A stretch of 64,000 bases of DNA from an uncultured Gammaproteobacteria bacterium (GCA_964569575.1 CAZMTL010000001.1:67503-131502), one strand, 5' to 3'; counted from the stretch's first letter, positions 1,486 through 50,577 are shown. Notes: generated by a model not told the origin, from the letters alone. Numbers and translations are program-made.

Positions 1486-2283
1486 TTATAAAAACAGTAT
1501 CAGTACAATGATTCCGAGAATAATTCGATATACCGCAAACCAGCCGTAGCTTATTTTTTGAACTAAAAAGAGGAGTGTGTTCATGGCGATTACGCCAGAT
1601 ACAAATGCGGTTACAAACCCCACCAGAATCGGAAAGACCGAGATTGCTTCACCTGATTCTATCACGTCGATAAATACCAACATGCCGGCACCGGCGATAG
1701 CGGGAATAGATAGGAGGAACGAAAATCGAGCGGCTGTTTCGCGGTTTAGTCCAGCGAATAATCCGGCACTGATGGTTGAACCTGAACGAGAGGTTCCTGG
1801 AACGAGTGCGAATACCTGTGCGCACCCAATGGCGATCGCTTGCTTCCAGCTTATTCTTGCTGGTTCCGCAACGCTTTTCTTTCTTCTTTTTTGCACTTCG
1901 TCGGCAATCCAAAGAATGATTCCCCAGACGATTAACATGATCGCGATTACCACTGGGTTTCGGAGTGAATCGAGGAATGCGTCGTTAATTAAAAATCCAA
2001 CAAACACAATCGGCAGCGTTGCCATCACAATCTTCCACCCCAGCACTCCTTCGCGGTCGTGTTTTTTGGAGAATAAACCCTGCAAAATATGCTGAATATC
2101 TTCGCGTAAAACCCAAATGATCGCACAGAGCGTTGCTAAATGCGTCGCAACATCGAACACGAGTGACTGTTCTTGCCAACCGAATAATTGCGGAATTAAC
2201 ACCAAGTGCCCCGAACTAGAAATTGGAAGAAACTCGGCGATTCCTTGCACTAAGCCGAGAATGGCGGCCTGAAATATGTTCAT
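1486..2283 (-). CDS. uppP: undecaprenyl-diphosphate phosphatase (BacA/UppP)
   Basis: Polytopic membrane protein with UppP signature motifs ISSSGHL and PGTSRSG. Confidence 0.92.
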   Translation of the reverse strand: MNIFQAAILGLVQGIAEFLPISSSGHLVLIPQLFGWQEQSLVFDVATHLATLCAIIWVLREDIQHILQGLFSKKHDREGVLGWKIVMATLPIVFVGFLINDAFLDSLRNPVVIAIMLIVWGIILWIADEVQKRRKKSVAEPARISWKQAIAIGCAQVFALVPGTSRSGSTISAGLFAGLNRETAARFSFLLSIPAIAGAGMLVFIDVIESGEAISVFPILVGFVTAFVSGVIAMNTLLFLVQKISYGWFAVYRIILGIIVLILFL

Positions 2284-2284
2284 A

Positions 2285-4915
2285 CTACTCGTCGAACGTC
2301 ACAACCTGACCTGGAAGAACGGAGGTGGATTTTGGACGTTCTTCTTTTGGCGCGCGCAATTGATCTGGCGCGTGGTCGTTTGGTTGTTTTGGTGTTTGTT
2401 GTACTGGTTGAGATTCGGGAGGCTGAACTTTTGATTTTTGTTGCCATTGCGAAAACGCCTCTTTTTGTTGAGAGTTCGCACGTGCTTGATTTGCTGTCAG
2501 ATGATTATTTTGAGACGGATTTTTGAGTGAATCGAGACTGATGCGTTCTTGCGGCACTTCCGAAGAACCTTCACCTCCCTCGCCTCTGCCTTTTCGACGT
2601 CGGCGTTTACGTTTACGTTTTTTTGTGGATTCGTCACCTGCACTGGCCGACTGTCCGTCGTTTCGCGATTGCGTTGACGCAGGACGCTGTTCGCTATCGG
2701 CTGGCGACTGACCTCCCCTAGCCTCCGGCACTAAAGGCCGGACAAGCTCTCCTTGTGGATCTGAGAAGGAGGGGGAACTCGTTCGATTTTCTTCGCGATC
2801 CGGACGCTCTCTTCTCGTCATCCCGGGCTCCGACCCGGGATCCATCGCTTCTTGCTGCGGTCGCTCGGCGCGATCTACTCGCTCTTCGCGAGGGCGTTCG
2901 CTGCGCTGTTGTGGCACTTCGCGAGACGGTCGTTCGATAGACTCACTTCGCTCCAGCTTTGGAGCCGTTGGATCTGGAACAGGGCTTGATAGCGGTTCGC
3001 GTTGAATTACTTCGCTTCGGCTTTCGGTTTCACCGTCTACCTTCGGCGCCTCTTCCATATGAAGGACTTCAGACGCTTTAAAAGCTGGAAGCGCTGTTGT
3101 TTGTTCAGATGTTATTGTCGGCTCTTTTGCTTCTGGTGCTTTTTTCTCGGACCGAGTTTCGTTGCGTTTTAATGAATCGAGGGAGATGGTTGCCTTTGGT
3201 TGATCTACCACCAACTCACCGTCTGATACTTTTTGTACCGGCGGAAGTTTTGGTTCTGATTTTTTTGGCTCTTCGCGTTTGCGATCGCCTTTGCGGTCAG
3301 ATGACCGCGGCTCGCTTGAACCGCCTCGACCTCCTTTTGGTTTGCTTTTTGATTTCGCTCGTTCTTCCTTTATGATCGGCATGCAGTCGTCGCAATAAAT
3401 TGGACGTGAACGATCGAGTTCAACTGGTAAACCGAATTCTTTGTTACAACGTGTACAGTTGTAATTGTGTTTGTATTTTTCTTTGCGTTTTTCTTTCGCT
3501 TCCTTCAACGCTGAATCGAATTCCTTCTCCATGTCGATGTCATCGCCTCCAAAACCGCTCCATCGCACTACGTGTTCCTCGATTTTTTCTCGAGGAATTG
3601 AATAGCGCTCGCGGGATTGGGTAATCACCTTTTGCTCACTGTCGGTTCGGTGTGCAATTGGCGCGAGCGTTGCGGCAGAAAACGGTTGTGATGTCACACC
3701 GTCGATCATTAGCTTCAGGTAGATGCTGAATTTTGGCAGGTTAATAATGTCTTCCGGCGTAAAGCGAGGCATGAATTCATCTTCCATGAATACGGCGTCG
3801 GGCGAACCTACGCGGAATGAAATGATGGTTCCAACGTTTCCGAACACGGCGTCGCGCACTTCTTCGGTTAACTGAGCGATGTATTGGTGCGCCATGATCA
3901 AATTCAATCGGTACTTTCGGGCTTCGGACAAGATTGAGGCAAATGATTCCACGGCGAAGTTTTGGAATTCGTCTACGTACAAATAAAAATCTGCGCGATC
4001 TGCTTCGGGCGTGTCGACGCGTTCCATGGCGGACATTTGAATTTTTGTAATGATCATTCCACCGAGCAAGCGCGAAGCATCTTCCCCGATTCGTCCTTTT
4101 GACAGGTTGATGATGAGGATTTTTTCTTCATCCATGATTTTACGGATGTTGATAGTGGACTGTGCTTGCGCCACGATGTTTCGAACGATTGATGCAGAAA
4201 GGAACTGTCCTACTTTGTTTTGGATCGGAGCCACGGCTTCGGTTGCGAATTTGTCCTGGTACTGCGCGAATTCTTTTACCCAAAACTGACGGACGATTGG
4301 GTCTTTTACGTTTGAGATGATTTCTTTTCGATAGTCCTTGTCGGAAAGTACGCGGTTGATTCCTAGCAATGTTGAACCTGGGTTGTCGAGCAACGCTAAA
4401 ATTGTGTTGTTTAAGATGTATTCCATTCGAGCAGACCATACGTTTTCCCAGATCTTTTTGAATACACCCATCATTCCGGCGGCGACCAAATGTTTCATTT
4501 CGTCGTCGACCGATTCTAAAATGTTGAACCCGACCGGGTACTGTACATCGGCTGGGTTGAAATACACGACATCGTTTATGCGCCACGACGGGATGTAGTC
4601 GAGTAATTTTTCAGCTGTGTCTCCGTGCGGATCCACATAGCAGGCTCCGTGTCCGGCGTAAATGTCGGAGAGGATCATGTTTTCGAGCAGGGTGGTTTTT
4701 CCCATCCCTGTTTTTCCGATCACATACGTATGACGGCGGCGATCGTCTGTTTTTATGCCGAATTTTCGCATTTGGTTTCGGAAATTGGTTTTTCCGAAGT
4801 AAATGATGTCATTTTCGTGATCGTGTGGGTAGCGCATATTCATAAGGAAATGGATCAGCAATTTGAACGGAAGCGTCTGCGTCGATGTTGTTTCGCGACA
4901 TACGGACGACTTCAC
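2285..4915 (-). CDS. VirD4/TraG/TraD-like type IV coupling-protein-family ATPase with C-terminal zinc ribbon and roughly 350-aa disordered K/R/E/P-rich tail
   Basis: Walker A VIGKTGMGKTT followed by YVDPHGD (TrwB/TraD AAD-binding-type NTPase); CTRCNKEF...YCDDCMP zinc ribbon; tail has KKRKRKRRRRKGRG patch; 33-nt gap to upstream gene. Confidence 0.8.
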   Translation of the reverse strand: MKSSVCRETTSTQTLPFKLLIHFLMNMRYPHDHENDIIYFGKTNFRNQMRKFGIKTDDRRRHTYVIGKTGMGKTTLLENMILSDIYAGHGACYVDPHGDTAEKLLDYIPSWRINDVVYFNPADVQYPVGFNILESVDDEMKHLVAAGMMGVFKKIWENVWSARMEYILNNTILALLDNPGSTLLGINRVLSDKDYRKEIISNVKDPIVRQFWVKEFAQYQDKFATEAVAPIQNKVGQFLSASIVRNIVAQAQSTINIRKIMDEEKILIINLSKGRIGEDASRLLGGMIITKIQMSAMERVDTPEADRADFYLYVDEFQNFAVESFASILSEARKYRLNLIMAHQYIAQLTEEVRDAVFGNVGTIISFRVGSPDAVFMEDEFMPRFTPEDIINLPKFSIYLKLMIDGVTSQPFSAATLAPIAHRTDSEQKVITQSRERYSIPREKIEEHVVRWSGFGGDDIDMEKEFDSALKEAKEKRKEKYKHNYNCTRCNKEFGLPVELDRSRPIYCDDCMPIIKEERAKSKSKPKGGRGGSSEPRSSDRKGDRKREEPKKSEPKLPPVQKVSDGELVVDQPKATISLDSLKRNETRSEKKAPEAKEPTITSEQTTALPAFKASEVLHMEEAPKVDGETESRSEVIQREPLSSPVPDPTAPKLERSESIERPSREVPQQRSERPREERVDRAERPQQEAMDPGSEPGMTRRERPDREENRTSSPSFSDPQGELVRPLVPEARGGQSPADSEQRPASTQSRNDGQSASAGDESTKKRKRKRRRRKGRGEGGEGSSEVPQERISLDSLKNPSQNNHLTANQARANSQQKEAFSQWQQKSKVQPPESQPVQQTPKQPNDHAPDQLRAPKEERPKSTSVLPGQVVTFDE
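2710..2850. repeat. MITE-like composite hairpin repeat, copy 5 (inside CDS tail; core A forward, core B inverted, extra ccggcactaaaggccgg hairpin)
   Basis: ctcgtcatcccgggctccgacccgggatccatcg at 2814-2847 and ctccttgtggatctgagaaggaggggg at 2741-2767; matches copies at 33731, 46955, 24331, 22536. Confidence 0.6.
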
Positions 4916-4948
4916 CCAGTCGTAGAGACCGAGTGAAGTATTCGCTGA

Positions 4949-6568
4949 TTAAAGTGGAAGATTTCGAGGGATTTCTTCGTTGTTGATTGGTTCGTCTGCC
5001 AAATCGAGCCCTGGTGGAAGCGGCGCCGGCATTCCTGGGCGAGGCATACTAGGGTCGATAAATTCTTCAGGAACGTGCGCTGGTGCCGGAACCTGTACTG
5101 GTCGTGACTGAACTTGCGTGGTACGTGTAGACGTTGGCGCTGTTGGATGCGGCGCGACAAGCGGCTTTGCTTGTGGAAGCGACGATGCTCCATAACCTCC
5201 CTGCACATCGGGCGATGTACGGTTTAGATTTGGCAAATCTGGTTCGTCGACACCAGCGAATTGTAATTCGTTTGGCGCTTCTGAACGTCGCGCGCCAAGC
5301 GATGTAAGTACCGGTGTTCGCGCGTCCGCTGCTGGGAAGTGGAAAATAGTCGCAAGTTCTTCAACGTTTAAAATGTACGGGCTCGCTCCTGTTCCAAACG
5401 ATCGTGCCTTGAACCGATTCACCAAATTACGCTGCCTTCCAGGCAATTCCCATTCTTGCCAGAAGTAATCGTCGTTTGGCGTTGCTGGAGCGTGAAGTCC
5501 AAGCTTGTTCAAGTTTAAATGACCGTACTGATTCCAAATTCCTTTGGTCATCGATGCGATCGTTCCTTTTCGGAAAATTGGCTTTTGTGCAGCGTAGTAA
5601 AAGCGGATTTTTGTGTACCAACCAATTTTTGAAATCTTATTCGCGATTCCGTCGATTTTTTCTTTTTCACGTGGAGTGATTTTGAACGCCGCGAAATCGT
5701 CGGCCTTCTTTTCTTCGCTCGCCGATCCTGTTAAAGAACCACCGGTCACCTGCTCGACGATTTCAGCGGGCAACCAAGAAATCACGTCCGCAATGCCGTT
5801 TCCTGATTTTTTCTTTTCTTCTTTTCCGTACAAACGATTGATTTCTTTCTCCCCTTTCTTCAACCAATCGTCGTCCATGATTGGGTAAATCAACAGCTGC
5901 ATAAAGTAGTACTCCCCTGGCTGCATGCGGCCGATTCCTTCGAGCAACGAAAGAAGAGGATCTTTGAATCGCTGATCCTTTTCACCCGTATGCTCGAAGC
6001 TATCCCATGTTCGAATCGGGAGATAATCTGCATTTGCTAGTTTTACTTCCGAACCCCATAAATCCCAGTTTTCGTTCGGGAATTCTTTTGGCACCACATC
6101 GACGTAATCTTCGTCTACTTCGCTGATTTGTGCTTCTGGGTACTGAGCGTAAAATGCGGCTTCGACCATGTCACGATACTTTGTGACGGTGCGGATATAA
6201 AAACGCACTTCGCCGCCAAGACTGGCGATTTCGAAACTGAACCATCCTTGGATTTTTCCGTCGAGCCATTTTTCTTTCCACGTTGGTGTTGATTTGATTC
6301 CGGCCAAACTGGTAAAGAAGTTTTCCATTCCTTTCGGTGTTTGAATTGCATCTCCAGGAACGTTAACTCGTAATAAATTCCACTTGAGCTTGGAGACGTA
6401 CAACCCTTGTCGGGCGTCGAGCCAGAGTTCGAGCAACCCCCAAATGACAACACAAAAAATAAGAAATCCACCAATGGTAAAAATGATATTGCGTGCCAAT
6501 ACTTCAAACGGCGTTATTTCGAGGTATCGGTTGACACTCTCGATAAGCTCGGAAAAAAATGTTTCCAT
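4949..6568 (-). CDS. hypothetical membrane protein (539 aa, N-terminal TM helix, Pro-rich C-terminus), gene partner of VirD4-like ATPase
   Basis: Single N-terminal hydrophobic segment IIFTIGGFLIFCVVIWGLLELW; co-directional, 33 nt upstream of ATPase gene; no known family recognised. Confidence 0.75.
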   Translation of the reverse strand: METFFSELIESVNRYLEITPFEVLARNIIFTIGGFLIFCVVIWGLLELWLDARQGLYVSKLKWNLLRVNVPGDAIQTPKGMENFFTSLAGIKSTPTWKEKWLDGKIQGWFSFEIASLGGEVRFYIRTVTKYRDMVEAAFYAQYPEAQISEVDEDYVDVVPKEFPNENWDLWGSEVKLANADYLPIRTWDSFEHTGEKDQRFKDPLLSLLEGIGRMQPGEYYFMQLLIYPIMDDDWLKKGEKEINRLYGKEEKKKSGNGIADVISWLPAEIVEQVTGGSLTGSASEEKKADDFAAFKITPREKEKIDGIANKISKIGWYTKIRFYYAAQKPIFRKGTIASMTKGIWNQYGHLNLNKLGLHAPATPNDDYFWQEWELPGRQRNLVNRFKARSFGTGASPYILNVEELATIFHFPAADARTPVLTSLGARRSEAPNELQFAGVDEPDLPNLNRTSPDVQGGYGASSLPQAKPLVAPHPTAPTSTRTTQVQSRPVQVPAPAHVPEEFIDPSMPRPGMPAPLPPGLDLADEPINNEEIPRNLPL

Positions 6569-6677: not shown

Positions 6678-7577
6678 TTATTTTTTTGTGAACTTTTCCC
6701 AAGTCACCAACAACGGACTTGCAAGGAAAATGGATGAGTAGGCTCCGCTGACAATTCCGATAATCAGCGTAAGGATAAACGGCTTTGTCGTCACTCCTCC
6801 GAAGAAGAATACGGCAAGGAGCACAAGAAGCGTGGTGAGTGAGGTATTAATCGATCGTCCGAAACTTTGCACAATACTTCGATTCACAACTTCCGAAAAC
6901 GGTTCGTCGGAATGTCGGTTGAGCGTGAGGTTTTCGCGCACACGGTCGAAGATTACGATCGTGTCGTTAATTGAATATCCCAGAATGGTTAGGATTGCTG
7001 CGATAAACGCTGTGTCTAATTGGTAACCGGCTACTTTTCCAAGGACAGCAAATACTCCAAGTGGGATCAGGACGTCGTGAAGAGCCGTTACGATTGTGAG
7101 CACTCCGTACTTCCATGACGCGATCGGCTTTGCAACCGTACGGAATGACCAAGCGACGTAGACAACGATAAGCGCAAGTAAAATGATGACAGCGATAATT
7201 GATTTTTGCTTCAATTCCTTTCCGATCACCGGACCAATTGAATCGAAACGTGTTTCTTCGAATGCTCCGTGGCGTTCTTGCAGCGTTGCGGTAATTGCAT
7301 CGTGCGCTTCACGGTCGATGGATTCCATTCGGACAATGACCACGTTGTCATCACCGGTTTGTGTTGTTGGTGAGTAGCCAAGTTCTTGAATGGTCGAGCG
7401 GACATCTTCTGATGAAACCGTGTTTTCAAACTTTACTTCCATTAATGTTCCTCCTGTAAAATCGATTCCAAGCTGGAGCCCAAAGACCAGAATGGCGACA
7501 ATCGAAGCAATCGATAGGGCGCCCGAAATAGCAAACCAGATTTTTGAGTGGCGCACGATGTGCAGTGTGTTTTTCAT
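6678..7577 (-). CDS. secF: protein translocase subunit SecF
   Basis: GIDFTGGT motif, 6-TM SecF topology; immediately downstream of secD. Confidence 0.92.
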   Translation of the reverse strand: MKNTLHIVRHSKIWFAISGALSIASIVAILVFGLQLGIDFTGGTLMEVKFENTVSSEDVRSTIQELGYSPTTQTGDDNVVIVRMESIDREAHDAITATLQERHGAFEETRFDSIGPVIGKELKQKSIIAVIILLALIVVYVAWSFRTVAKPIASWKYGVLTIVTALHDVLIPLGVFAVLGKVAGYQLDTAFIAAILTILGYSINDTIVIFDRVRENLTLNRHSDEPFSEVVNRSIVQSFGRSINTSLTTLLVLLAVFFFGGVTTKPFILTLIIGIVSGAYSSIFLASPLLVTWEKFTKK

Positions 7578-7578
7578 A

Positions 7579-9591
7579 TTATTCTTCTGAATTTCCGTTA
7601 TACAACCATTTTGCTCGTAACACCTTCACTTCACTTGCGGCTTTTAAGAAGACACGCGTGACGAAAATCGCTGTAAGCATCGATACAATAATTCCGATCG
7701 CGAGCGTGAGGGCAAATCCTTTAATGAAGCTTGTACTCATGATGAATAAGATGCCGGCCGCGATAAGTGTTGTTAGGTTTCCGTCGCGAATTGAAGTCCA
7801 TGCTCGGCGGAATCCTTCGTCGATCGCCGTTCCCAAGTCGCGTCCAGAACGTAGTTCTTCTTTTAGACGTTCGAAGATGAGTACGTTTGCGTCAACCGCC
7901 ATTCCGATCGACAGAATGAATCCGGCGATGGAAGAAAGCGTCATGGTGACGCCTAGCCATTTGTAGACAGCTAAGTTGATCATTGCGTAAAGAAGAAGCG
8001 AGATAACCGCGATCAATCCAGCAAGTCGGTAGTAAGCGATCATGAAAATCGCTACAAGCGCGAATCCGATCAATGCAGCTTGTACACTTCGATCAAGCGA
8101 TGCTTGTCCGAGCGTTGGTCCAACGGTTTGCTGAGCGATCAGTTCGATAGGCACTGGAAGCGCTCCTGCGTTCAATCGCTGAGCGAGCAATTTTGCTTCG
8201 TCGAGCGTGAATGAACCAGTAATACTTGCTTGGCCTCCGTAAATCGCTTGCTGAATAACTGGTGCCGAAATCAATTCTCCGTCAAGGAAAATTCCCATGA
8301 TTCCGCCAATGTTTTGCTCTGTAATGGTCGCAAATGCTTCCGATCCTTCGCCGTTAAATTCGAGCAAAATGTACCAACCGCCTGTGTAAGTGTCTTGAGT
8401 TACTGACGCCCGTCGAATGTCTTCACCAGAAAGTTCGGTCGATTGCCACGGGTCGATGTCCGCAATGTCGGAAAGCGTAGTCCATGGAAGTTCGATGTGG
8501 GCGATTTCGTAGGCGTTTGCAGAACGCGAATCTTGTCGGAAGATGATGTGGAAACCAAAATCTGTTTCGATTACATCCGAAATACGATTGTCGCGCATTG
8601 CGAACAACGCGTCGTTGAATTCTTCCACCATCTGCCCTTCTGCTACCCACCCAAGACTTCCAGCCGCATTTACTGCGGTTGGGTCGTCGGATCGTTCGGC
8701 AGCGATTTCGCCAAAGTTCTGCGTCGTGACTTCGCCTGCGATTTCGTTAATGAGTACTTCTGCTTCTTCGCGCGTTCGTGTTTGTTCACATCGCGTTGTT
8801 CCTTCAAAACAAATCAAAATGTGCGATGCTTCGACTTCCTGCTGTTCTTCGACCGAGAGGACATTCACAATGTGCATCGCAGATGTGCTTTCGTACAAAC
8901 CATCTACCACTCCTTCCTCAATTCCGTCTTCGACCAACTGCTGTACCAAGCCGTCAAATACCGTGTGCGTTGAATCAACAAATCCAACGTATCCGCCGCT
9001 TACTGACGTTTCTTCATCAACCGACAATTCGCTTGCCAGTTCTTCGAAATTTTCGCGGTCGAGTGCGCGATCAAGAATGTCGAGCGCGCTTTCGCGTTCC
9101 ATTTCCTGCGCGGCTTCGATCTGCGCCTGCTGTTCTTCGGTTGGGTCGATATCTACGTTTTCGTTCGGTAATTTGAATTCCAAAATTGGTGTTTCACCAA
9201 TCTGATCGATTGCTTCTGATACATCGAATACGCCAGCGAGATCGACAATGATACGATCACGATCTGGAACGGCCTGAACGATCGGTTCCGAAACACCAAA
9301 GGCGTTTACACGACGTTCAATTACATCCCGAATTCCTTGAAGCGCCTGATTTTTCTGACCATCTTCTACCGCTGACAAATCAGCTTGGTATTCGAGGTGC
9401 GCTCCGCCCTGTAAATCTCGCCCAAGACGAAAACCGTCTTCGTTTAATTTAAGTCCATTTAAACCAATCGCTCCAAACGCGGAATTCCATGCGGATGGAA
9501 ATGCGGTTGAAGCGGTAAAGATTCCCACAAAAAGAATGGCAAGAATACTTGCGTAAAGTCCTTTTTGGGATGCTGACGGTGATTTCTTCAT
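7579..9591 (-). CDS. secD: protein translocase subunit SecD (long periplasmic domain)
   Basis: DLQGGAHLEY first periplasmic motif, C-terminal 6 TM segments, adjacent secF. Confidence 0.92.
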   Translation of the reverse strand: MKKSPSASQKGLYASILAILFVGIFTASTAFPSAWNSAFGAIGLNGLKLNEDGFRLGRDLQGGAHLEYQADLSAVEDGQKNQALQGIRDVIERRVNAFGVSEPIVQAVPDRDRIIVDLAGVFDVSEAIDQIGETPILEFKLPNENVDIDPTEEQQAQIEAAQEMERESALDILDRALDRENFEELASELSVDEETSVSGGYVGFVDSTHTVFDGLVQQLVEDGIEEGVVDGLYESTSAMHIVNVLSVEEQQEVEASHILICFEGTTRCEQTRTREEAEVLINEIAGEVTTQNFGEIAAERSDDPTAVNAAGSLGWVAEGQMVEEFNDALFAMRDNRISDVIETDFGFHIIFRQDSRSANAYEIAHIELPWTTLSDIADIDPWQSTELSGEDIRRASVTQDTYTGGWYILLEFNGEGSEAFATITEQNIGGIMGIFLDGELISAPVIQQAIYGGQASITGSFTLDEAKLLAQRLNAGALPVPIELIAQQTVGPTLGQASLDRSVQAALIGFALVAIFMIAYYRLAGLIAVISLLLYAMINLAVYKWLGVTMTLSSIAGFILSIGMAVDANVLIFERLKEELRSGRDLGTAIDEGFRRAWTSIRDGNLTTLIAAGILFIMSTSFIKGFALTLAIGIIVSMLTAIFVTRVFLKAASEVKVLRAKWLYNGNSEE

Positions 9592-9676: not shown

Positions 9677-10030
9677 CTATTCTTTTTTGAAGGTGACTTT
9701 GAATGAAGGTACCCATCGGTTGTCGTATTCGTCTTTGATTTCGACGCTTTCGTTTGCAAGGAATTTATTCAACGCTAAATCGGACAGAATTTCGCTGTCG
9801 GTTGCGATTTCGAGCTTCAAATCTTCCATCTTGTCTACCTCGGTCTGAGAATCTGCTTTTACCCCGTTTTCGAGCGATTTCTTTTCTTCCCGCAACGCCT
9901 TCATTTCTTCACCAATTTCTTTATGTCGTTCGATATGAACAAATTGATCGCGGATCATTTTATTCAAATCTCGCAGTTCGTGTTTATTTTTTTCGATCCG
10001 TTTGTAGATTTTTTCGATGTCTTGTTCCAT
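9677..10030 (-). CDS. hypothetical coiled-coil protein (117 aa)
   Basis: Highly charged heptad-rich sequence, no TM; between trhO terminator and secD. Confidence 0.55.
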   Translation of the reverse strand: MEQDIEKIYKRIEKNKHELRDLNKMIRDQFVHIERHKEIGEEMKALREEKKSLENGVKADSQTEVDKMEDLKLEIATDSEILSDLALNKFLANESVEIKDEYDNRWVPSFKVTFKKE

Positions 10031-13971: not shown

Positions 13972-16740
13972 CTAAGCCCCGTGACATTTCTTAAACTTCT
14001 TTCCACTTCCGCAGGGACATGCTTCGTTTCGGCCTACGTTTGAATAGTCCGCGCCTGGCGCTGATTGGGATGGCGCTGAAGCGAGCTTGTTTGTTCGTGC
14101 TGCGACTGGGTTGCCCATTGTTTTTTGGGCACCTTGAAGGGTTAGTTTTGCTTTTTCGATTAAGCTTGGGGCTAGCTGCACCACTTGTTGGGTTGTGATG
14201 GCTTGGCCTAGGACTTTGAAGACGTTGTAGACGACTTCTTTTTGAATCGCAACTTGTAAGTTTTCGAACATTTCGAAGGCTTCGCGCTTGTATTCAATGA
14301 GTGGGTCGCGTTGGCCGTAGCTGCGGAGTCCGACGGAACGGCGTAGGTATGTCATTTCGTCTAGATGCCGAACCCACATGTTGTCGTAGGCGCGTAACAT
14401 TAATGTTCGGTACATCCGATTGAGCCGTTCTTTTTCGGGAAGTTTTTCTTCCGCGAACGCCATTTTTGATTTCGCTTCTGCGACAAACCCTTCGATCACA
14501 AACGAACGTTGCGTTGCAAGACGTTCTTTGTCGCGCGAAATTTCTTTCAATTCTTGCGCGACGTTTGATTCGAATTCTGCGCTGATTGGCGCGATCGTTT
14601 TTAGGACTTCGATAATTTCTTTTGGATCCCAATCTGCTTTTTCTGTCTTGTTTGCAAACTCTTCTGGCACTTCTGCAGCGCTAGAACCTGTGTGGAACAA
14701 CACGACGCGCTCAACTTCTTCTTCAACCATTTCCAAAATCTTTTCTGCGAATCCTTCTTCTTGTTTAAGCAGTTCGCGGCGTTCGGTGTAGATGGCAGTT
14801 CGGTGCTTGTTCAATACGTCGTCGTATTCTAGAACGTGTTTTCGAGAATCGAAATGACGTCCCTCGACGCGTTGCTGTGCTTTTTCGAGCGAGTTCGAAA
14901 TCATCTTACTTTCGATTGGCATTGTTTCTTCAATCTTGAGTGTTTGCATCACTTTCTTTGCACGATCGCTTCCAAAAATGCGCATCAATTGATCGTCCAT
15001 CGAAACGTAAAATTGTGTCGAACCTGGGTCGCCTTGTCGCCCGGCTCGTCCTCGCAACTGGTTGTCGATGCGTCGCGAATCGTGGCGTTCGGTTCCGATT
15101 ACGTGCAATCCGCCTAGCGCCTTTACCGCTTCTTGTTCTTCCTTATCGAACGGCTGACCGCCAAGCATGATGTCGACTCCGCGTCCTGCCATGTTTGTCG
15201 CTACAGTTACTGCCCCGCGTCGACCGGCTTGCGCGATAATTTCTGCTTCGCGTTCGTGGTTTTTTGCGTTCAATACTTCGTGCTTCACACCTCCCTTTGT
15301 CAGAAGTTGCGAAAGAAGTTCGTTGTCTTCAATCGAAATGGTTCCAAGCAACACGGGCTGCCCTTTCTGCTGTCGCATTTTTACTTCTTCTACCACCGAC
15401 AACAACTTCCCTTTTGTGTTTTGATAAATACGATCGTTCAAATCTTCGCGGGCGATTGGATTGTTGGTTGGCATCTGTACTACTTCCAACTTGTAGATTT
15501 TCGAAAATTCTTCTGCTTCGGTTGCCGCTGTTCCGGTCATTCCCGAAAGCTTGTTGTACATGCGGAAATAATTTTGGAAGGTGATCGTTGCCATCGTACG
15601 ACTTTCTCGGTTCACCTGAACTCCTTCCTTCGCTTCGATTGCTTGGTGCAATCCGTCACTGTATCGACGTCCTTCCATCACGCGTCCGGTAAATTCGTCG
15701 ACAATTTTAACTTCCCCATTTTGCACAACGTATTCTTTGTCTTTTTGAAATAACGCTCGCGCTTTGAGTGCTTGTTCAGCGTGGTGAATGTATTCCAATC
15801 CTCCGCTTGTGTAGAGATTTTCTACACCAAGACGTTTTTCGAGTGTCTCGATTCCGGCATCGGTAAACGTTGACGCACGCATTTTCTCGTCGATGTTGTA
15901 GTGCTCGCCTTCTTTCAAATCTCTTACCAATTCCGCGAAACGGAAATAGAGATCAGCTGATTCTTCCGCAGGAGCCGAGATGATGAGCGGCGTGCGGGCT
16001 TCGTCGATTAAGATTGAGTCGATTTCGTCGACAATCGCGTAGTGAAGTTCGCGCTGCACACGGTCTTCTTCGCGCGTTACCATGTTGTCGCGCAAGTAAT
16101 CGAATCCGAATTCGTTGTTTGTTCCGTACGTAATATCTGCCGCGTACGCTTCACGACGACTTACCGGTCGCAAAAAGTCCATCTGAACTTTGAACGAACC
16201 TGTTTGGTCGCGTTCTTCATCTTCTTCCTTCGCTGCTTTGAACGATTCGTCGTAGATGTATCCGCTTTCGTGCTGAATGCAGGCGACGCTTAATCCAAGA
16301 AATGAAAAAATCTGTCCCATCCAAACCGCGTCACGCTTTGCAAGGTAGTCGTTTACTGTTACGACGTGTACGCCTTTTCCTTCGAGCGCGTTTGCGTAGA
16401 CGGCTAGTGTTGAGGTAAGCGTCTTTCCTTCACCTGTTCGCATTTCGGCAATTTGACCTTTGTGTAGAGTGAGCCCTCCCATCAGCTGAACATCGTAGTG
16501 TCGTTGACCAAGCGTGCGACGAGCGGTTTCGCGTACAATCGCGAATGCTTCATGAATCACGCTGTCGAGCGCCGTGCCTTCCTGAACTTGTTTTTTGAGG
16601 TCGAGCGATTTCTGCTTTAATGCTTCGTCCGACAAGCTAGCCAAACCTGGTTCTAGGTTGGTTATTTTTTCTGCTTCGGTTCGTAATTCTTTTAACGTTT
16701 TCTCGTTCGGATCACCGAAAATTTTGGTCAAAAAACTCAT
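13972..16740 (-). CDS. secA: preprotein translocase ATPase SecA (922 aa); track ORF 13972..17196 is an N-terminal read-through into the GC-rich islet
   Basis: True start MSFLTKIFGDPNEK at 16740; DEAD-motor and C-terminal zinc-finger CPCGSGKKFKKCHG. Confidence 0.95.
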   Translation of the reverse strand: MSFLTKIFGDPNEKTLKELRTEAEKITNLEPGLASLSDEALKQKSLDLKKQVQEGTALDSVIHEAFAIVRETARRTLGQRHYDVQLMGGLTLHKGQIAEMRTGEGKTLTSTLAVYANALEGKGVHVVTVNDYLAKRDAVWMGQIFSFLGLSVACIQHESGYIYDESFKAAKEEDEERDQTGSFKVQMDFLRPVSRREAYAADITYGTNNEFGFDYLRDNMVTREEDRVQRELHYAIVDEIDSILIDEARTPLIISAPAEESADLYFRFAELVRDLKEGEHYNIDEKMRASTFTDAGIETLEKRLGVENLYTSGGLEYIHHAEQALKARALFQKDKEYVVQNGEVKIVDEFTGRVMEGRRYSDGLHQAIEAKEGVQVNRESRTMATITFQNYFRMYNKLSGMTGTAATEAEEFSKIYKLEVVQMPTNNPIAREDLNDRIYQNTKGKLLSVVEEVKMRQQKGQPVLLGTISIEDNELLSQLLTKGGVKHEVLNAKNHEREAEIIAQAGRRGAVTVATNMAGRGVDIMLGGQPFDKEEQEAVKALGGLHVIGTERHDSRRIDNQLRGRAGRQGDPGSTQFYVSMDDQLMRIFGSDRAKKVMQTLKIEETMPIESKMISNSLEKAQQRVEGRHFDSRKHVLEYDDVLNKHRTAIYTERRELLKQEEGFAEKILEMVEEEVERVVLFHTGSSAAEVPEEFANKTEKADWDPKEIIEVLKTIAPISAEFESNVAQELKEISRDKERLATQRSFVIEGFVAEAKSKMAFAEEKLPEKERLNRMYRTLMLRAYDNMWVRHLDEMTYLRRSVGLRSYGQRDPLIEYKREAFEMFENLQVAIQKEVVYNVFKVLGQAITTQQVVQLAPSLIEKAKLTLQGAQKTMGNPVAARTNKLASAPSQSAPGADYSNVGRNEACPCGSGKKFKKCHGA

Positions 16741-16817
16741 ACACGCACGATTTTTTTCTGCTGGATTAACGAGGCTATCTTGCCTCAAAAATGAGAAAAG
16801 ATCAATTTTTCCTGTTA

Positions 16818-16856
16818 CCAAAACGCAAAACCCCGCGAACGCGCGTTCGCAGGGTA
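16818..16856 (-). terminator. rho-independent terminator downstream of cupin gene
   Basis: Palindrome ccccgcgaacgcgcgttcgcaggg followed (minus strand) by TTTTGCGTTTT. Confidence 0.6.
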
Positions 16857-16877
16857 AGCCGATGCTGGGCTCGGGTA

Positions 16878-17327
16878 CTAGTTGACGACGAACTTGTCTT
16901 CGGGTCCGCCGCCGCCGATGTTGATCACCGAGGCCCGGAAGGCCTGCGTGTGCAGAACCTCGTGGACTGCATTGGGCGCTACGATCACGATGCCACCCGC
17001 GGGCACGTGGTACGTCTCCCCGTCGATCCAGATGGTCATCGTGCCGTCGAGCACGGTGTAGATCTCGGTGCCGACGCGGTGGTAGTGACGATCCTCCTTC
17101 GCGCCGTGGGTGAACACGGCGACTTCGAAGGGGGTCGCGCCTCCGCCCGTGACGATGACCGGGCATCGCCCGTTCTCGCCGCTGTCGTGGCTCCACACCG
17201 ACTCGGTGGCCTCGCTCTCAGTTCGGGCGAACAAGCCGACCACGGCCAACTTGCGGGCACAGCGGCCACCGTCCATGAAGTTCGGATCCTTGTCGATCGC
17301 AATGGGGAACACAACCAAGGACTTCAT
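16878..17327 (-). CDS. cupin-domain protein (149 aa) in high-GC islet 2
   Basis: GGAGG 5 nt upstream of ATG 17327; two-motif cupin pattern (..HGAKEDRHYHRVGTEIYTVLDG.. / ..YHVPAGGIVIVAPNAVHEV..). Confidence 0.72.
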   Translation of the reverse strand: MKSLVVFPIAIDKDPNFMDGGRCARKLAVVGLFARTESEATESVWSHDSGENGRCPVIVTGGGATPFEVAVFTHGAKEDRHYHRVGTEIYTVLDGTMTIWIDGETYHVPAGGIVIVAPNAVHEVLHTQAFRASVINIGGGGPEDKFVVN

Positions 17328-24482: not shown

Positions 24483-27400
24483 TTATTGACCGGCTGAGGT
24501 GAATGGTGCGCTGGTTTTGTAGAGTTGGAGGAGGGTTGGTGGTAAATCTATTACTCGATCGCTCCAGTTTTGTCCGAAGAGGATTGCGGCGGTTTGTTCG
24601 TTTGGAATAGCTCGGATGTAGTTGATGCCTTGCGACAGGATTGGTGCGTAGACGGTTGGGTCGCTTTGGATTTTTACAAGAGAGTTTGCCGGGTTTGGAA
24701 GCACCGGATCGCCCAGCCTGTAGAACGGCAACGTCGCGTCACTCACTACCAATACGTCATCAAAGTCTTGATGCCACGTGAAGTAGATCGCTTGGTTCAT
24801 GAATGGTTTTCGCGTTCCGTTTTCGAGGGCGTAGACCGTTGAGTACGTCGTTCCTTTTACCAATAGCGCGTTGTCTGGAACGCATGTTACTTGTTCTAGT
24901 TCACCGGTTTGCGGCGAAGGAGCAAAGACTTCTTCGGTACAGGCGTCAGGAACAGGTTCGGTTGGTTCGACTGGTTCTTGCGGTTCTTCTACATTTTCGC
25001 AGTCAATCAAAATGTCGGATACGTCTACCGAAGTCGTGAGGGTGTTTGTCGAATTTCCACCCGCCGTTCGCAAGCGTAAGTAGAATGTTTCTACTTCCTG
25101 ATCTGCGACAAATTCAATCGGAGCAATCATGATTTGTTTTTCTGCTGTGCTAACGGTTTCGTCAATCACATACGCCTGCCATTGTGCGCCGACAAAGTAG
25201 GCGTTATCGCTCACCACTACTTGCGCCGCGTTCTTTGCTTGGATGTAGATGTTTGCTTGCGCGACTTCACCGCGACACAGTTGAGGTTCACTCACTTGAA
25301 CATCGATATTTACATTTTCGACCACGATAATCGGCCCCGAATCTCCACCGCCACCTCCGCCGCCGCTTGGCGTGTCGTTGTCGGTGTTCGACAGCGTGAC
25401 ATCGTTTGGATCGATTACGTCGTACAAAGCGTCGGATGTTAACCCGGCATTTATCACTACTTCGATTGTGTACACAACATCCCCGTCTACCGTTCCGTCA
25501 TCTTGTCCGGTAACTGTCACCGTTTGCGGAGTACTCCAGTTAAGTGGAGTGAATGTAAGCGTCGCTCCGCCTGTTACCAATCCTTCTGTTGCGTCGTCGG
25601 ATGCGGAGTTGATTACAACGTCACCCGTTGGTTCGGTGTCGAGCACAACGGTGAATGTTGTGATGCCACCGGCTTCGGTTGTGTTTCCTGATACTGCCGA
25701 AACAGTTACGCCTGCTGTGTCGTTGTCGATATTTTGTAACGACACTTCTTCGCTTGCGACTACGTCATAAACGGTGTCGAGTGTCGCGCCTGCGTTTACC
25801 GAAACATCAATCGCATATGCACTATCGCCGTCGTCGATGTCGTCGTTCTGACCTGTTACCGTGACTGTTTGCGGTTGATTCCAGTTGAGTGCGTCGAAGT
25901 TAAGGGTCGCGCCAGATGTCACCACTCCTTCCGAACTGTCGTTGCTCACATTTTCTATCGTGACACTGGCCGTAGGTTCGGTCTGCAATTGAACCGTGTA
26001 CGTTGCCGTGATTCCGGCCTCGGTCGTGTTATTTGAAATTGCGGAGACAATCAATCCTGCCGTGTCGTCGTCTTCATTCGTAACAGCAACCTGCTGATCT
26101 GGCAAAGCTTCGTATTCGAGGTCGTCGGATGTTGCATCGTCTACCGAAACGGTGACCGTGTACGCGACATCGCCGTCGTCTACGTCATCATCTTGTCCGG
26201 TGACGGTGACGGTTTGTGGCGTATCCCAATTGATCGACGTGAACGTAAGCGTCGCTCCGTCAGTAACTGTCCCTTCTGCGCTGTCCGATGCTGAATTAAT
26301 TACAACGTCACCAGTTGGTTCGGTTGTAAGGACGATTGTAAATGTGGCCGTAGCGCCCGCTTCGGTGGTGTTGTTCGAGATCGGTGACGTGACGAATGAT
26401 GACGAATCATTGTCTACGTTCGAAAGCGCTACGTCGGACGGGTCAATCGCGTCGTAAAGTGGGTCGAGTGTTTCTACCGTATCTGTAGTGATTAAAATAG
26501 TGTATGCAACCAGTCCGTCTGCGAGCGCATCGTCTTGTCCTGTCACGGTCACAGTTTGTGGCGTATTCCAGTTTCCTGCGTTGAATGTAAGCGTTGATCC
26601 GCTTGTCACGACTCCTTCCGATGCATTGCTCGAAACAGAATCGATCACCACATCTCCCGTTGGTTCGCTGTTGAGTCGAATGGTGAACGTTGCTGTTCCG
26701 CCATCTTCCGTGGTGTTCCCGGAGGCAGCGGAGACGGTAAACCCAACCGTGTCGTTGTCGGTGTTTTGGGCGTTTACTTGTTGCGCGGGAAGAATATCGT
26801 AGAGCGCATCTTGCGTGTCGGGTGCGTCGACTTCGACGTCTATCACATACGCCACGTTTCCGTCGTCGATGTCATCGTTTTGTCCGGTCACAATTACTGT
26901 TTGCGGGTCATTCCAATCAGCCGGAGTGAAGGTAAGCATCACGCCGGTCGTCACGACTCCTTCGGACATATCGCCGCTCACCGAATTGATCACCACATCC
27001 CCTGTCGGCTCGCTGTCGAGCACAACGGTGAATGCCGCTACTCCACCGGCTTCCGTCGTGTTGCTCGAAATAGCCGAAAGGGTGAACCCGGCTGTGTCGT
27101 CGTCTTCGTTTGTTCCTTCGACCTGTTCGTCAATCGCGCCAATGTATTCAATCGCGTCTGTGAGCGCTTCGTTTATAGTGACGTCGATTGTGTAGTCGAT
27201 ATTTCCGTCATCCACGTCGTCATCCACTCCCGCGATCGTGACGGTTTGTGGCGTGCTCCAGTTTGAAGCATCGAACACACGACTCGCGCCCGATACAATG
27301 ATTGCTTCGGTCGTGTCACTCGAAATTGAATTAATGACCACGTCACCGGTTGGCTCACTTTCCAAAACAACAGTAAATGTTGCCGTTGTTCCCGCTTCGG

Positions 27401-30400
27401 TTGTGTTGTTAGAAATGGCCGAAACGCCAAAGCCAGCGGCGTCACCATCGTCTTCGTTTACAACTTCTACTTGCTGATTTGGTACGTTGCCGTATCCAGT
27501 TGCCGTTGTCAGTAGATCGTCAACCTCTACTTCGATTGTATAGTTCACGTTACCGTCATCTATTGTATCGTTCACTCCCGTCACAGTGACCGTTTGCGGA
27601 ACCGTCCAGTTTTGATCGTCGAATGTGAGCGTTCCACCGCTAGTTACCAATCCTTCTGTCGAATCGTTCGATATTGAATCAATCACCACGTCCCCTTCCG
27701 GTTCGCTGTCGAGCACAACGGTAAATGTAGCCGTTGCGCCAGCTTCGGTGGTGTTGTTCGAGATGGCAGAAACGGTGACTCCGAGTGTATCGCCGTCGTC
27801 TTCGTTTACAACCGTTACATCGTCTGGATCAATGACTGCGTATTCAACATCGGTTGTATCGTTTTGATCGAGTGTGACAATGATCACGTACTGCACGTCT
27901 TCGTCATCGAGAAAGTCGTCTTGACCTGTTACCGTTACCGTTTGTGGCGTATCCCAGTTACCTGAATTGAATGTAAGCACCGATCCGCCCGTGACGATTC
28001 CTTCTGTTTCGTCGTCGGATTCCGAATTTACCACTACCACTCCGACCGGCTCACTTTGAAGCACAACCGTGAACGTGGCTGTTGCTCCGGCTTCGGTGGT
28101 GTTGTTCGAGATGGCGGAAACCGTAATTCCACCGGCGTCGTTGTCGATGTTTGTGACCACTGCGTCGTCTGGATTAATCGCGTCGTAAAGCGCGTCGTTG
28201 GTCGCGTCTTGGTCCGTGGTCATGATGATGGAATATTCAATATCACCATCCGCAATATCGTCATCTTGTCCGGTGACGGTTGTAAATTGCGGCGTGTTCC
28301 AGTTTTCGGTGGTGAATGTGAGTGTTGCGCCGGCTGTCACAACTCCCTCTGTTGCGTCGTTCGATGCTGCTTCGATCACCACGTTTCCAGTTGGCTCGGT
28401 GTTTAGTACAACCGAAATTGTTGCCGTTCCACCCGACTCTGTTGTGGTACCCGAAACTGCCGAAACACTTACGCCCGCCGTATCATTGTCGATATTTGTT
28501 ACCGCAACATCGTCTGGATTAATCGCATCGTAATTGTCGTCTTCCGTGAGAGCTGCGTCGACAGTGGTGGTGATGGAATAAAGAATGTCTCCGTCGTCCA
28601 AGTTGTCGTTCTGCCCAGTGACTGTTATGGTTTGAGCGATGTTCCACGTTCCTGTTTCAAATGTAAGCACCGATCCACTTGTCACAACTCCTTCTGTCGA
28701 GTCGCCCGAAACCGAATTGATCACAACCGTGTCCGTTGGCTGTGATGTAAGATTTACGGTAAACGTCGCCGTCGCTCCGGCTTCGGTAGTGTTATTCGAA
28801 ATTGCTGAAACATTTACACCAACCGCATCGCCGTCGTCGATGTTTTGCAATGATCGATCGAGCGGATTCGCATTGTCGTAATTGTTGTCGGTGGTCGCTG
28901 CCGTGTCCATCGAAGTCACAATCGAATAAGCAATGTCTCCGTCCGCGATGTCGTCGTCTTGTCCCGTAACTGTGACTGTTTGTGGCGTATCCCAGTTTGA
29001 TGAATCGAAGAGAAGACTTGCGCCGCTTGTCACAACTCCTTCCGTTGCGTCATTCGATGCAGAAAGTACAACAACATCTCCTACCGGTTCTGTTGTAAGC
29101 ACGACAGTGAACGTGGCCGTTCCTCCGGCTTCGGTCGTATCTCCTGATATAGCAGAAACCGTCACACCGCGCGTGTCGTTGTCGGTGTTTTGTGCATTCA
29201 CTGTTTGATCGGCCAACACGTCATAATCACCATCGTCTGTTAATGCGTCGTCGATCGAAACTTGAATCGTGTACGCGATATTTCCATCGTCGATATCGTC
29301 GTCTTGACCTGTTACTGTCACCGTTTGCGGCACATTCCATTCACTCGGAATGAACGTAAGCGTGCCTCCGCCAGTTACTACTCCTTCTGTTGCATCGTTA
29401 GAAACTGAATTGATTACTACATCACCTATCGGTTCGGATGTTAGTTCTACCGTAAATGTAGCCGTCCCTCCGGCTTCGGTTGTGTTATTCGAAATAAGCG
29501 ATACGCTAAATCCTGGCGCGTCGCCGTCGTCTTCGTTTGTGACCGAAACGTCGTTTGGATTTACCGAATCGTATCCGTTGTCGGTTGTTGCTACCGTGTC
29601 TGTTGCGACAACAATTGTGTAGGCAACGTTTCCGTCTCCAAGTCCGTCATCTTGTCCGGTAACCGTGACTGTTTGTGGCGTGTCCCACGTTGCAGAATTG
29701 AATGTCAGACTCGCTCCGCTTGTCACAACTCCTTCTGTTGTGTCGTTTGATGCGGAGGTGATCACCACATCGCCCTCAGGTTCAGAATTGAGTACGACGG
29801 TGAATGTTGCTGTTCCACCTGCTTCGGTAGTGTTTCCGGAGATTGCCGAAACCGTCACACCACGCGTGTCGTTGTCTTGGACGGTGACAGAAACGTCATC
29901 GATTTCGATTCCGTTGTAGTTTGGATCATCTGAAGTGACTGTATGCTCGATAACTACTATCTCATTCGTTTCATCAATATCATCATTCACCGCACTCACC
30001 GTCACTGTTTGTGGTGTATTCCAGTTTAGATCCGTGAAGGTGACAGGATCGATGTCGGTGGTAATTTCGCCAGAATAAGAAAGATCAACCACTACATCGT
30101 CGGTCGGCTGCATGGTCAGCACCAGCGTGTACGAATCCGTCGTACCGTTTTCGTGCACCTGCGTGTTTATGCCCGAAATCGTGACCACTACATCCACAAT
30201 GTCGTTGTCGATGTTGGTAATAGTGACATCGTCCGGATCGGTTGCGTCGTACAGCGGATCGACTGTCGCGCCTTGGTTGATCGACACCACAACATCATAA
30301 AGAACATCTCCATCGATTAGTGCGTCGTCCTGACCAGTCACCGTTACCGTTTGTGGAATATTCCAGTTTTCGGTCGTGAAGGTGCGTGTTGCTCCTGCAG

Positions 30401-50551: not shown

Positions 50552-50577
50552 CGCCACTCGGCGTTATTTTGTTTTAG
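50552..50577 (+). terminator. rho-independent terminator of rpmG
   Basis: aacgcc-actc-ggcgtt followed by ATTTTGTTTT; same hairpin as 52754-52769 in opposite orientation. Confidence 0.6.

Follow-up and report, generated by a model that had tools for sequence, protein, structure and literature searches.

The 64,000-nucleotide window analyzed here (GCA_964569575.1, CAZMTL010000001.1:67503-131502; "the window" denotes this whole stretch) was deposited as DNA of an uncultured Gammaproteobacteria bacterium. It contains two consecutive minus-strand open reading frames (ORFs), detected by an ORF scan, that encode a P-loop ATPase and, immediately upstream, a 539-aa protein with the Pfam domain DUF8128. 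An initial annotation of this DNA described the pair as an orphan module composed of a TrwB/VirD4-type NTPase and a single-pass membrane protein. The two genes are not chance ORFs, because the ATPase has more than 8000 homologues and the DUF8128 family comprises 2582 representatives of 50%-identity clusters at E<=1e-3. The longest ATPase frame starts with GTG. Since its homologues begin with MRYPHDHEN, the start is likely the ATG at 4837 or 4843, giving a protein of 850-852 aa; the NCBI call is 828 aa long. NCBI names these ATPases [quoted passage not shown].

The ATPase is a coupling protein of type IV secretion systems (type IV coupling protein, T4CP) of the VirD4/TrwB type, and neither FtsK nor HerA. 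It passes the cut-offs of three T4CP models in Pfam, TrwB_AAD_bind (38.1 bits, cut-off 20.5), T4SS-DNA_transf (24.8 bits, cut-off 20.1) and TraG-D_C (24.2 bits, cut-off 22). The DUF87/HerA model scores 20.7 bits, below its cut-off of 23.2, and the FtsK_SpoIIIE model, which matches the P-loop only, gives 16.9 bits where 24 are required. The protein is not VirB4, because it reaches just 13.8 bits with the VirB4 model TIGR00929, whose cut-off is 643. The NCBIfam equivalogs SXT_TraD, CD1115, conj_TOL_TraD, CedD and VirB4 match the P-loop region far under their cut-offs, and by these scores the ATPase lies outside the named NCBIfam T4CP subfamilies. A fused homologue from Saccharimonadia exceeds the DUF87 cut-off (28.6 bits); the boundary between the T4CP and DUF87 models of Pfam is therefore soft.

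Structural comparison points the same way. In an AlphaFold2 (AF2) model of the ATPase core, an all-helical block (aa 112-236) is inserted between the core strands, where T4CPs have their all-alpha domain. The best Foldseek matches in the PDB are TrwB (1e9s, E 4e-9, TMt 0.54), DotL (6sz9) and Cagbeta (8dol). HerA appears first at rank 37, after all of the T4CPs, the C-terminal domain of VirB4 at rank 44, and no FtsK chain is found among the top 50 matches. The family assignment of the initial annotation therefore stands, and the clustering with FtsK or HerA that it had considered as a counter-argument was not seen. Walker A, Walker B (VDEFQNF), the AHQ motif and several arginines do not vary across 36 aligned homologues. 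The motor has no membrane anchor of its own, as had been proposed: a Kyte-Doolittle scan of the 850-aa protein found no hydrophobic segment. The PADLOC model mad8 of the defense system MADS matches the ATPase at 68 bits over aa 28-353, above every Pfam T4CP model, which suggests, as far as profile scores go, that mad8 belongs to the ATPase lineage of the window motor.

The motor core is followed by a zinc ribbon and a low-complexity, presumably disordered tail, slightly longer than the roughly 350 aa given before. The ribbon has weak matches to PF23477 (zf_Tbcl_2) and TIGR04272. Among the matches listed, it is present in 119 of 120 close homologues; it also occurs in all 12 of the more distant split forms examined from the Patescibacteria, or candidate phyla radiation (CPR), and is missing in the fused Saccharimonadia and plasmid forms examined. 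The tail consists mainly of E (12%), S (12%), P (11%), R (11%), K (8.5%) and Q (8%), with a net charge of +7, and its length differs widely among the 120 close homologues listed (16-383 aa, median 196). Of these homologues, 106 have a patch in which at least eight of ten positions are K/R, and 109 end with the motif PGExVxF[D/E]. The more distant loci L066-L073 have the variant PGQRV[TK][FL], and no runs of five or more K/R were found in the more distant CPR forms examined. The plasmid and phage relatives examined also lack the basic patch and the C-terminal motif, and the Saccharimonadia fusion lacks a basic tail. Because ribbon, patch and terminal motif are conserved while the length varies, the tail is, on alignment evidence, a flexible linker bearing short conserved motifs rather than random low complexity.

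The partner protein belongs to DUF8128 (PF26449), a domain that is precomputed for the exact window protein and for all 120 homologues listed. The local Pfam copy does not contain PF26449, and we built our own hidden Markov model (HMM) from 167 DUF8128 proteins; it recovers both fused and split relatives. No match to the partner was found in the PDB (profile search, E up to 10), the local Pfam or NCBIfam, and no mention of DUF8128 was found in the searchable literature. The single membrane pass claimed for this protein was confirmed as one N-terminal transmembrane (TM) helix, which is part of a long helix over aa 21-60 in the AF2 model. The model (pLDDT 74.6 overall, mostly above 85 over aa 60-415) consists of this helix, an alpha/beta domain (approximately aa 60-415) and a disordered proline-rich linker. 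The domain terminates in a conserved EELATxxHFP..DARTPVLT..GARR.EAP segment. About 70 variable residues precede the C-terminal consensus MPxPGMPAPLPPGLD...PxNLP, in which P514, A515, P516, P518, P519, G520 and P534 are conserved in at least 90% of the aligned sequences. The fused homologues have a single N-terminal hydrophobic helix and none separating the DUF8128 domain from the ATPase, so the DUF8128 domain should lie on the ATP side of the membrane. The charges around the window helix, an acidic N-terminal flank (2+/5-) followed by a basic one (4+/2-), agree with a cytoplasmic domain.

Table 1. Coordinates of the gene pair, its domains and motifs, and the adjoining genes in the window.
Feature	Coordinates	Strand	Remarks
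uppP/bacA	1486-2283	-	downstream neighbor; homology and BacA Pfam in relatives
ATPase ORF	2285-4915	-	876 aa from GTG
ATPase gene, start at ATG 4837	2285-4837	-	850 aa
Extreme C-terminal motif LPGQVVTFDE (consensus PGExVxF[D/E])	2288-2317	-	
Low-complexity, presumably disordered tail	2288-3382	-	365 aa
Polybasic patch KKRKRKRRRRK within the tail	2591-2623	-	
Zinc ribbon CxxC-x17-CxxC, CTRCNKEFGLPVELDRSRPIYCDDC	3383-3457	-	
P-loop motor core with inserted all-alpha domain (aa 1-430)	3548-4837	-	
Walker B YLYVDEFQNF	3956-3985	-	
Post-Walker A motif VDPHGD	4619-4636	-	
Walker A GKTGMGKT	4694-4717	-	
Partner gene, DUF8128 (PF26449)	4949-6568	-	539 aa
C-terminal proline-rich motif MPRPGMPAPLPPGLD...PRNLPL	4952-5047	-	low pLDDT, after variable disordered linker
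DUF8128 globular alpha/beta domain (about aa 55-435)	5264-6406	-	predicted cytoplasmic
N-terminal TM helix (aa 28-46), IIFTIGGFLIFCVVIWGLL	6431-6487	-	Kyte-Doolittle, score 2.65, sole segment
secF	6678-7577	-	upstream neighbor; homology and relatives' precomputed Pfam
secD	7579-9591	-	upstream neighbor; homology and relatives' precomputed Pfam

In a Foldseek search with the DUF8128 model, TrwK/VirB4 chains of R388 take all of the top 12 places among the PDB matches and are the only significant ones (E 9e-5 to 2e-3, prob 0.99-1.0), and the superposition with TrwK is poor (TM-score ~0.3, rmsd 8-12 A). Since no other P-loop ATPase occurs among the matches, the similarity would concern the VirB4-specific N-terminal domain. 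By Foldseek, DUF8128 may resemble this domain. Profile comparison with hhalign gave no signal against the N-terminal domains of TrwK, a Bacillus plasmid VirB4-like protein and a nine-sequence MPF-T VirB4 alignment made from plasmid matches. If the resemblance is real, these T4CPs share with VirB3/VirB4 a layout of TM element, N-domain and motor.

When species-representative genomes were scanned with the DUF8128 alignment, 80 loci were obtained, three of which were dropped as non-evaluable because a contig end cuts them. The ATPase gene lies directly 3' of DUF8128 on the same strand in 76 of the 77 evaluable CPR loci, which extend from Uhrbacteria-like genomes to Moraniibacteria and Saccharimonadia, where the identity of the partner is just 28-31%. 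In the sole exception (locus L082, 2057-3301), DUF8128 is followed by an MltG/YceG-like gene and mnmA; the name of this metagenome-assembled genome (MAG) includes "viral-cat".

In Saccharimonadia the two genes form a single ORF (895 aa in L084 and 840 aa in L083), and all 120 homologues listed for this fusion combine PF26449 and PF10412 in one protein of 814-950 aa. The same order is found outside CPR. The DUF8128 HMM matches the N-terminal third of T4CP-like proteins from plasmids of Peribacillus (E 2e-18) and B. subtilis (E 9e-12) and of gp156 of Bacillus phage G (E 4e-19). In the phage family phrog_5156 (824 positions), positions 75-302 match the partner (E 2e-14) and positions 401-804 the ATPase (E 2e-61). 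The 812-aa T4CP of an Embleya plasmid aligns with DUF8128 over 303 columns (hhalign probability 95.6%, E 1e-8), including the common EELA..H.P..DA.P.LT..GAR segment. In a plasmid of the haloarchaeon Halomontanus, a separate DUF8128-like gene (HMM E 2e-15) overlaps the start of the T4CP gene. A tblastn search of the partner against plasmids gave no match, and 2.9 million viral contigs contained one partial match.

Adjacency in 76 of 77 loci, together with the fusions in CPR, plasmids and phage G, strongly implies that the partner is the membrane-anchor and N-terminal half of one T4CP and not an unrelated neighbor. The initial annotation had named it as the only partner of the motor. It is best described not as an independent accessory but as the N-terminal module of one protein family, and it occurs in a single polypeptide with the motor in Saccharimonadia, on plasmids of Firmicutes and Actinobacteria, and in phage G. 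By the same comparisons, the T4CP was very probably split at a domain boundary in the clade of the window. Residues ~415-438 of DUF8128 and 1-30 of the ATPase are strongly conserved and have low confidence in the AF2 models. Because both segments flank the point where the fused proteins run continuous, they may form the joint between the two subunits.

In phage G (L100), gp156 (2885-5362), the 825-aa DUF8128-T4CP fusion, is preceded by gp155 (1220-2869), annotated as VirB-like. SPO1-like and other Bacillus phages have related ATPases with 22-24% identity. The family phrog_5156 is a DUF8128-T4CP fusion family whose PHROG entry reads "function unknown".

The plasmid relatives belong to recognizable conjugation gene sets. 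The Embleya set includes a PrgI-family protein, a VirB4-like ATP-binding protein, the T4CP, a replication-relaxation protein and NlpC/P60; the Peribacillus and B. subtilis sets include the T4CP, a replication-relaxation protein, TcpC/TcpD/TcpE-like and VirB4-like genes; and the Halomontanus order is "conjugal transfer protein", DUF8128-like gene and T4CP. A fused or adjacent DUF8128 plus motor thus appears, with strong support from these homologies, to be the standard T4CP layout of conjugative elements of monoderms and archaea. Searching 72,556 plasmids with the motor (tblastn) returned 646 records, almost all of them from Bacillus, Streptomyces, Staphylococcus, Clostridium, haloarchaea and Sulfolobus. 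These are taxa of the MPF-FATA class, which was proposed as the source of the patescibacterial type IV secretion system (T4SS) (PMC12102498). The best plasmid match to the CPR motor comes from the alphaproteobacterium Sulfitobacter mediterraneus (NZ_CP081110, 7986-9173; 39.8% identity, E 2e-95). This protein comprises just a T4CP core of 395 aa and is encoded beside transposase and recombinase genes; no DUF8128 match was found in this locus (L002), and the core may be a horizontally acquired fragment.

Among the Uhrbacteria-like loci of CPR, the large majority have the order secD-secF-DUF8128-ATPase, in most of them with uppP next and often followed by mnmA. The secD-secF neighborhood is missing at the Moraniibacteria- and Saccharimonadia-type loci; a functional link to Sec was considered and set aside, as the linkage is confined to the Uhrbacteria-like clade. 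In Moraniibacteria-type genomes and in two Saccharimonadia contigs the unit follows a gene with Sigma70_r4 and HARE-HTH domains, which is adjoined by dprA and topA. A Sigma70_r4+HARE-HTH protein of ~350 aa is encoded on the same strand directly 5' of DUF8128 (or of the fusion gene) at 13 loci from several CPR classes (L078, 4828-5889 on the plus strand; L089, 8879-9928; L090, 8903-9949; further L066, L068, L073-L077, L079 and L082) and is missing in the window. This protein may be a functional partner or may merely reflect inherited synteny. In L089 and L090, both from Saccharimonadia, the fusion stands beside an opposite-strand dcw cluster (mraZ, rsmH, the penicillin-binding protein gene, mraY, ftsW, murG) at 13-22 kb.

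The motor core is the most conserved product of the four syntenic genes in all 55 of 55 loci. The median identity to the window protein is 74% for the ATPase core, 55% for SecD, 53.5% for SecF and 49% for DUF8128, and by this measure the motor is under strong purifying selection. Taken as sequence evidence, conservation and distribution strongly indicate that the unit is a vertically inherited, near-universal chromosomal gene set in CPR, and that the ribbon, the disordered tail with its polybasic patch and the short C-terminal motifs on both subunits were gained in the clade of the window. A recent insertion of a mobile element was rejected on the conserved synteny and the ordinary GC content.

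The pair may be compared with several known systems. TrwB (R388), VirD4, DotL and Cagbeta belong to the same Pfam families, are the best structural matches, and share Walker A and B, an xDPxGD motif after Walker A and the all-alpha insert; the structural alignment with TrwB shows ~18% sequence identity. Unlike these canonical T4CPs, the window motor has no TM domain, its anchor being the separate DUF8128 protein, and it carries the zinc ribbon and the disordered tail. The window pair is also chromosomal, syntenic and far more conserved, with no relaxase or T4SS gene adjoining. The monoderm fusions, which comprise Peribacillus and B. subtilis plasmid proteins of 870-913 aa named "DUF87 domain-containing protein", Embleya and Streptomyces plasmid proteins of 812 aa and phage G gp156, have the same domain order, and the Halomontanus pair has the two-gene arrangement of the window. 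The plasmid forms differ in lying within conjugation-type gene sets (relaxase, PrgI, TcpC/D/E, VirB4-like), and the plasmid and phage forms lack ribbon, basic patch and C-terminal motif and have a motor identity of 22-37%.

The fused form of Saccharimonadia is an orthologous chromosomal CPR gene in a housekeeping context apart from T4SS genes, with a motor 48-50% identical to that of the window. It differs in being a single polypeptide with neither ribbon nor basic tail, and in having dprA, topA and the Sigma70_r4+HARE-HTH gene as neighbors instead of secDF and uppP. The "t4cp homologue" discussed for Ca. Southlakia epibionticum (PMC12102498) is probably this fusion. In the plasmid pIP501, TraJ is likewise a T4CP without its own anchor, for which tethering by the separately encoded TraI was proposed (PMC12857230). 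Compared by description, TraI is a small protein with two predicted TM domains, in contrast to the single-pass DUF8128 protein, and the TraJ/TraI pair is plasmid-borne, inside the tra operon. In VirB3/VirB4 (TrwM/TrwK), the layout of TM element, N-domain and RecA-like motor parallels DUF8128 plus motor; however, searches found no sequence or profile similarity between DUF8128 and VirB4, and the motor is closer to T4CPs than to the C-terminal domain of VirB4.

We propose that the two genes encode a two-part membrane-anchored T4CP that probably serves a patescibacterial T4SS encoded elsewhere in the genome. DUF8128, with one membrane helix and a cytoplasmic domain of ~380 aa, would supply what the motor lacks and tether the motor ring, presumed hexameric as in TrwB, to the membrane. 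The zinc ribbon and basic tail would recruit the substrate, which could be a nucleic acid or an acidic protein or lipid, and ATP hydrolysis would drive it into a channel. This channel would most probably be the MPF-FATA-like T4SS at another genome site. VirB4 has been reported in 2,417 of 3,035 patescibacterial assemblies (80%) (PMC12102498). The initial annotation had considered a minimal device for translocation or uptake. This is not indicated, because the unit belongs to ordinary conjugation gene sets on plasmids, and one TM helix per subunit offers no evident channel; a role independent of a T4SS is nevertheless possible.

A number of observations weigh against the proposed service to a T4SS. 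The link is inferred rather than seen, because no T4SS gene was found by Pfam in the 64-kb window or within 10 kb on either side in the six contexts of relatives that were inspected. The absence of T4SS, relaxase and pilin genes noted initially was thereby confirmed for the window and for these flanks; the term "orphan" holds over the same range and no further. The T4CP is found in more assemblies than VirB4 (2,918 and 2,417 of 3,035), only 148 of 5,713 patescibacterial T4CP genes are near virB4, and the T4CP homologue of S. epibionticum is non-essential where the T4SS genes are essential (PMC12102498; PMC10633639). In other CPR classes the neighbors are genes of DNA metabolism. Conservation as extreme as that of the motor is not expected of conjugative T4CPs. 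The AF2 model of the ATPase core, finally, is of moderate confidence (pLDDT 69.6, pTM 0.70).

In a different explanation, the unit is an exapted, T4SS-independent, membrane-bound translocase of nucleic acid or protein, acting alone or with non-T4SS partners and possibly dealing at the membrane with DNA or RNA that enters or leaves the cell. It is a possible reading that we hold to be somewhat unlikely. The separation from T4SS genes in every CPR context examined, the excess of T4CP over VirB4 and the dispensability of the T4CP all speak for it. Quinonero-Coronel et al. (2025), who found T4CP homologues to be near-universal in Patescibacteria and mostly distant from virB4, keep exaptation as a possibility (PMC12102498). 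Further points in its favor are the conservation of the motor above SecD and SecF, the CPR-specific ribbon and basic tail, which are predicted to suit nucleic-acid binding, and the position after dprA, topA and the Sigma70_r4+HARE-HTH gene in Saccharimonadia and Moraniibacteria-type loci. However, characterized T4CPs are known to work with a channel, and one TM helix per subunit provides no obvious one. Adjacency of dprA and topA is common in bacteria generally, the block may be plain inherited synteny, and the clade of the window has secDF and uppP in its place. The lack of VirB4 in 20% of MAGs may reflect incomplete assembly. A more elaborate form of the same idea appears doubtful to us. It combines a domesticated core motor, hexameric, anchored by DUF8128 and independent of a T4SS, whose ribbon and tail would hold nucleic acid and which, at the cytoplasmic membrane, would transport or process DNA or RNA (for instance during exchange with the host cell, or when imported DNA is handled together with DprA), with DUF8128 as a relic VirB4-type N-domain, implying a VirB4-like two-domain layout of ancestral T4CPs.

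A role as an FtsK-like chromosome pump, which would clear or segregate DNA at division and replace or supplement FtsK, is very improbable. In its favor, FtsK is a ring ATPase related to T4CPs, the succession of anchor, long linker and motor is reminiscent of FtsK, the gene adjoins the divergent dcw cluster in two Saccharimonadia contigs, and the unit is near-universal and highly conserved. Against this stand the FtsK_SpoIIIE score, confined to the P-loop, the top 50 Foldseek matches without an FtsK structure, the use of the same architecture in plasmid conjugation modules, and the fact that Pfam reported no separate domain of the FtsK-gamma type. TM7x, moreover, carries a separately annotated ftsK (PMC10768705). 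Replacement of FtsK was rejected on the Pfam scores, the fold ranking and this annotated gene.

We give hardly any credence to the pair being part of a defense system, MADS-like or of the HerA type, or the remnant of a decaying integrated conjugative element with no cellular role. The mad8 match (E 2e-19), weak matches to HerA/DndH models, HerA-SIR2 and HerA-DUF4297 complexes at rank 43 or lower in the Foldseek list, and the derivation of the family from mobile elements could be read in this way. MADS, however, is an eight-gene operon (bioRxiv 10.1101/2023.03.30.534895), and the flanking uppP, secF and secD are housekeeping genes by homology and relatives' Pfam; these flanks and the other window ORFs were assessed by Pfam or homology, not by PADLOC. 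The partner has no PADLOC match, the synteny is stable across CPR classes with unremarkable GC content, and the viral contigs yielded only the single partial match. Invariant catalytic motifs and very high conservation are the opposite of decay. The defense reading was rejected on gene context despite the mad8 match.

The family of the motor and the existence of orphan, near-universal patescibacterial T4CPs are already known (PMC12102498). In the searchable literature we found no description of DUF8128 as the cognate N-terminal T4CP module across CPR, Firmicutes, Actinobacteria, archaea and a jumbo phage, nor of the split form with its CPR-specific ribbon and tail motifs or of a motor conserved above the adjoining Sec genes. 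Patescibacteria make up a large part of bacterial diversity and live attached to host cells, and their T4SS is the first for which growth was shown to depend on such a system (PMC10633639, PMC12857230). The T4SS cluster of these bacteria has no recognizable coupling protein or relaxase, and the locus shows a candidate for the missing coupling protein. DUF8128, until now a domain of unknown function, gains a concrete predicted role, for which the fusions provide "Rosetta stone" evidence of subunit pairing. The locus also offers defined, testable parts in its zinc ribbon, basic patch and pair of C-terminal motifs. Should the unit act together with the T4SS, it would reveal the substrate receptor of a symbiosis machine that is essential; should it act without one, a conjugation motor would clearly have been exapted for a central role in the cell.

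The adjoining genes secD, secF and uppP were assigned through relatives and not from the Pfam scan of window ORFs. The ATG of uppP (2283) begins 1 nt beyond the ATPase stop codon (2285-2287), and no minus-strand terminator-like sites were found between secF, DUF8128, the ATPase gene and uppP; two such sites near 9000-9550 fall within secD. Spacing and lack of an intervening terminator are compatible with one transcription unit secF-DUF8128-ATPase-uppP. A promoter and terminator scan of the window gave no signal exceeding shuffled expectation, and no tRNA or Rfam features were found in its 64 kb. The GC content near the gene pair is unremarkable.

The Pfam scan covered 30 further window ORFs, namely 28 of at least 150 aa, a 117-aa ORF (9677-10030) and the 292-aa pyruvate kinase ORF (32-910). 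None of them matched VirB4/B6/B8-11, a relaxase or a pilin. The functions found are all housekeeping and include pyruvate kinase, SecA, MurB/C, SHMT, FolD, XseA, QueA, MetK, SOD and an AcrB-type pump. Three giant minus-strand ORFs have no Pfam match at E<=1e-3 (24483-33551, 3022 aa; 36106-40392, 1428 aa; 53409-58067, 1552 aa). The stretch at 38-40 kb has both the minimum GC content of the window (0.389) and the most negative GC skew (-0.23). A 278-aa ORF on the minus strand (50574-51410) combines ATP-cone, Mrr_cat restriction-endonuclease and AF1548-like C-terminal domains. In the SecA ORF (13972-17196, minus strand), SecA_DEAD starts at aa 157 counting from GTG, which corresponds to either an over-called start or an N-terminal extension.

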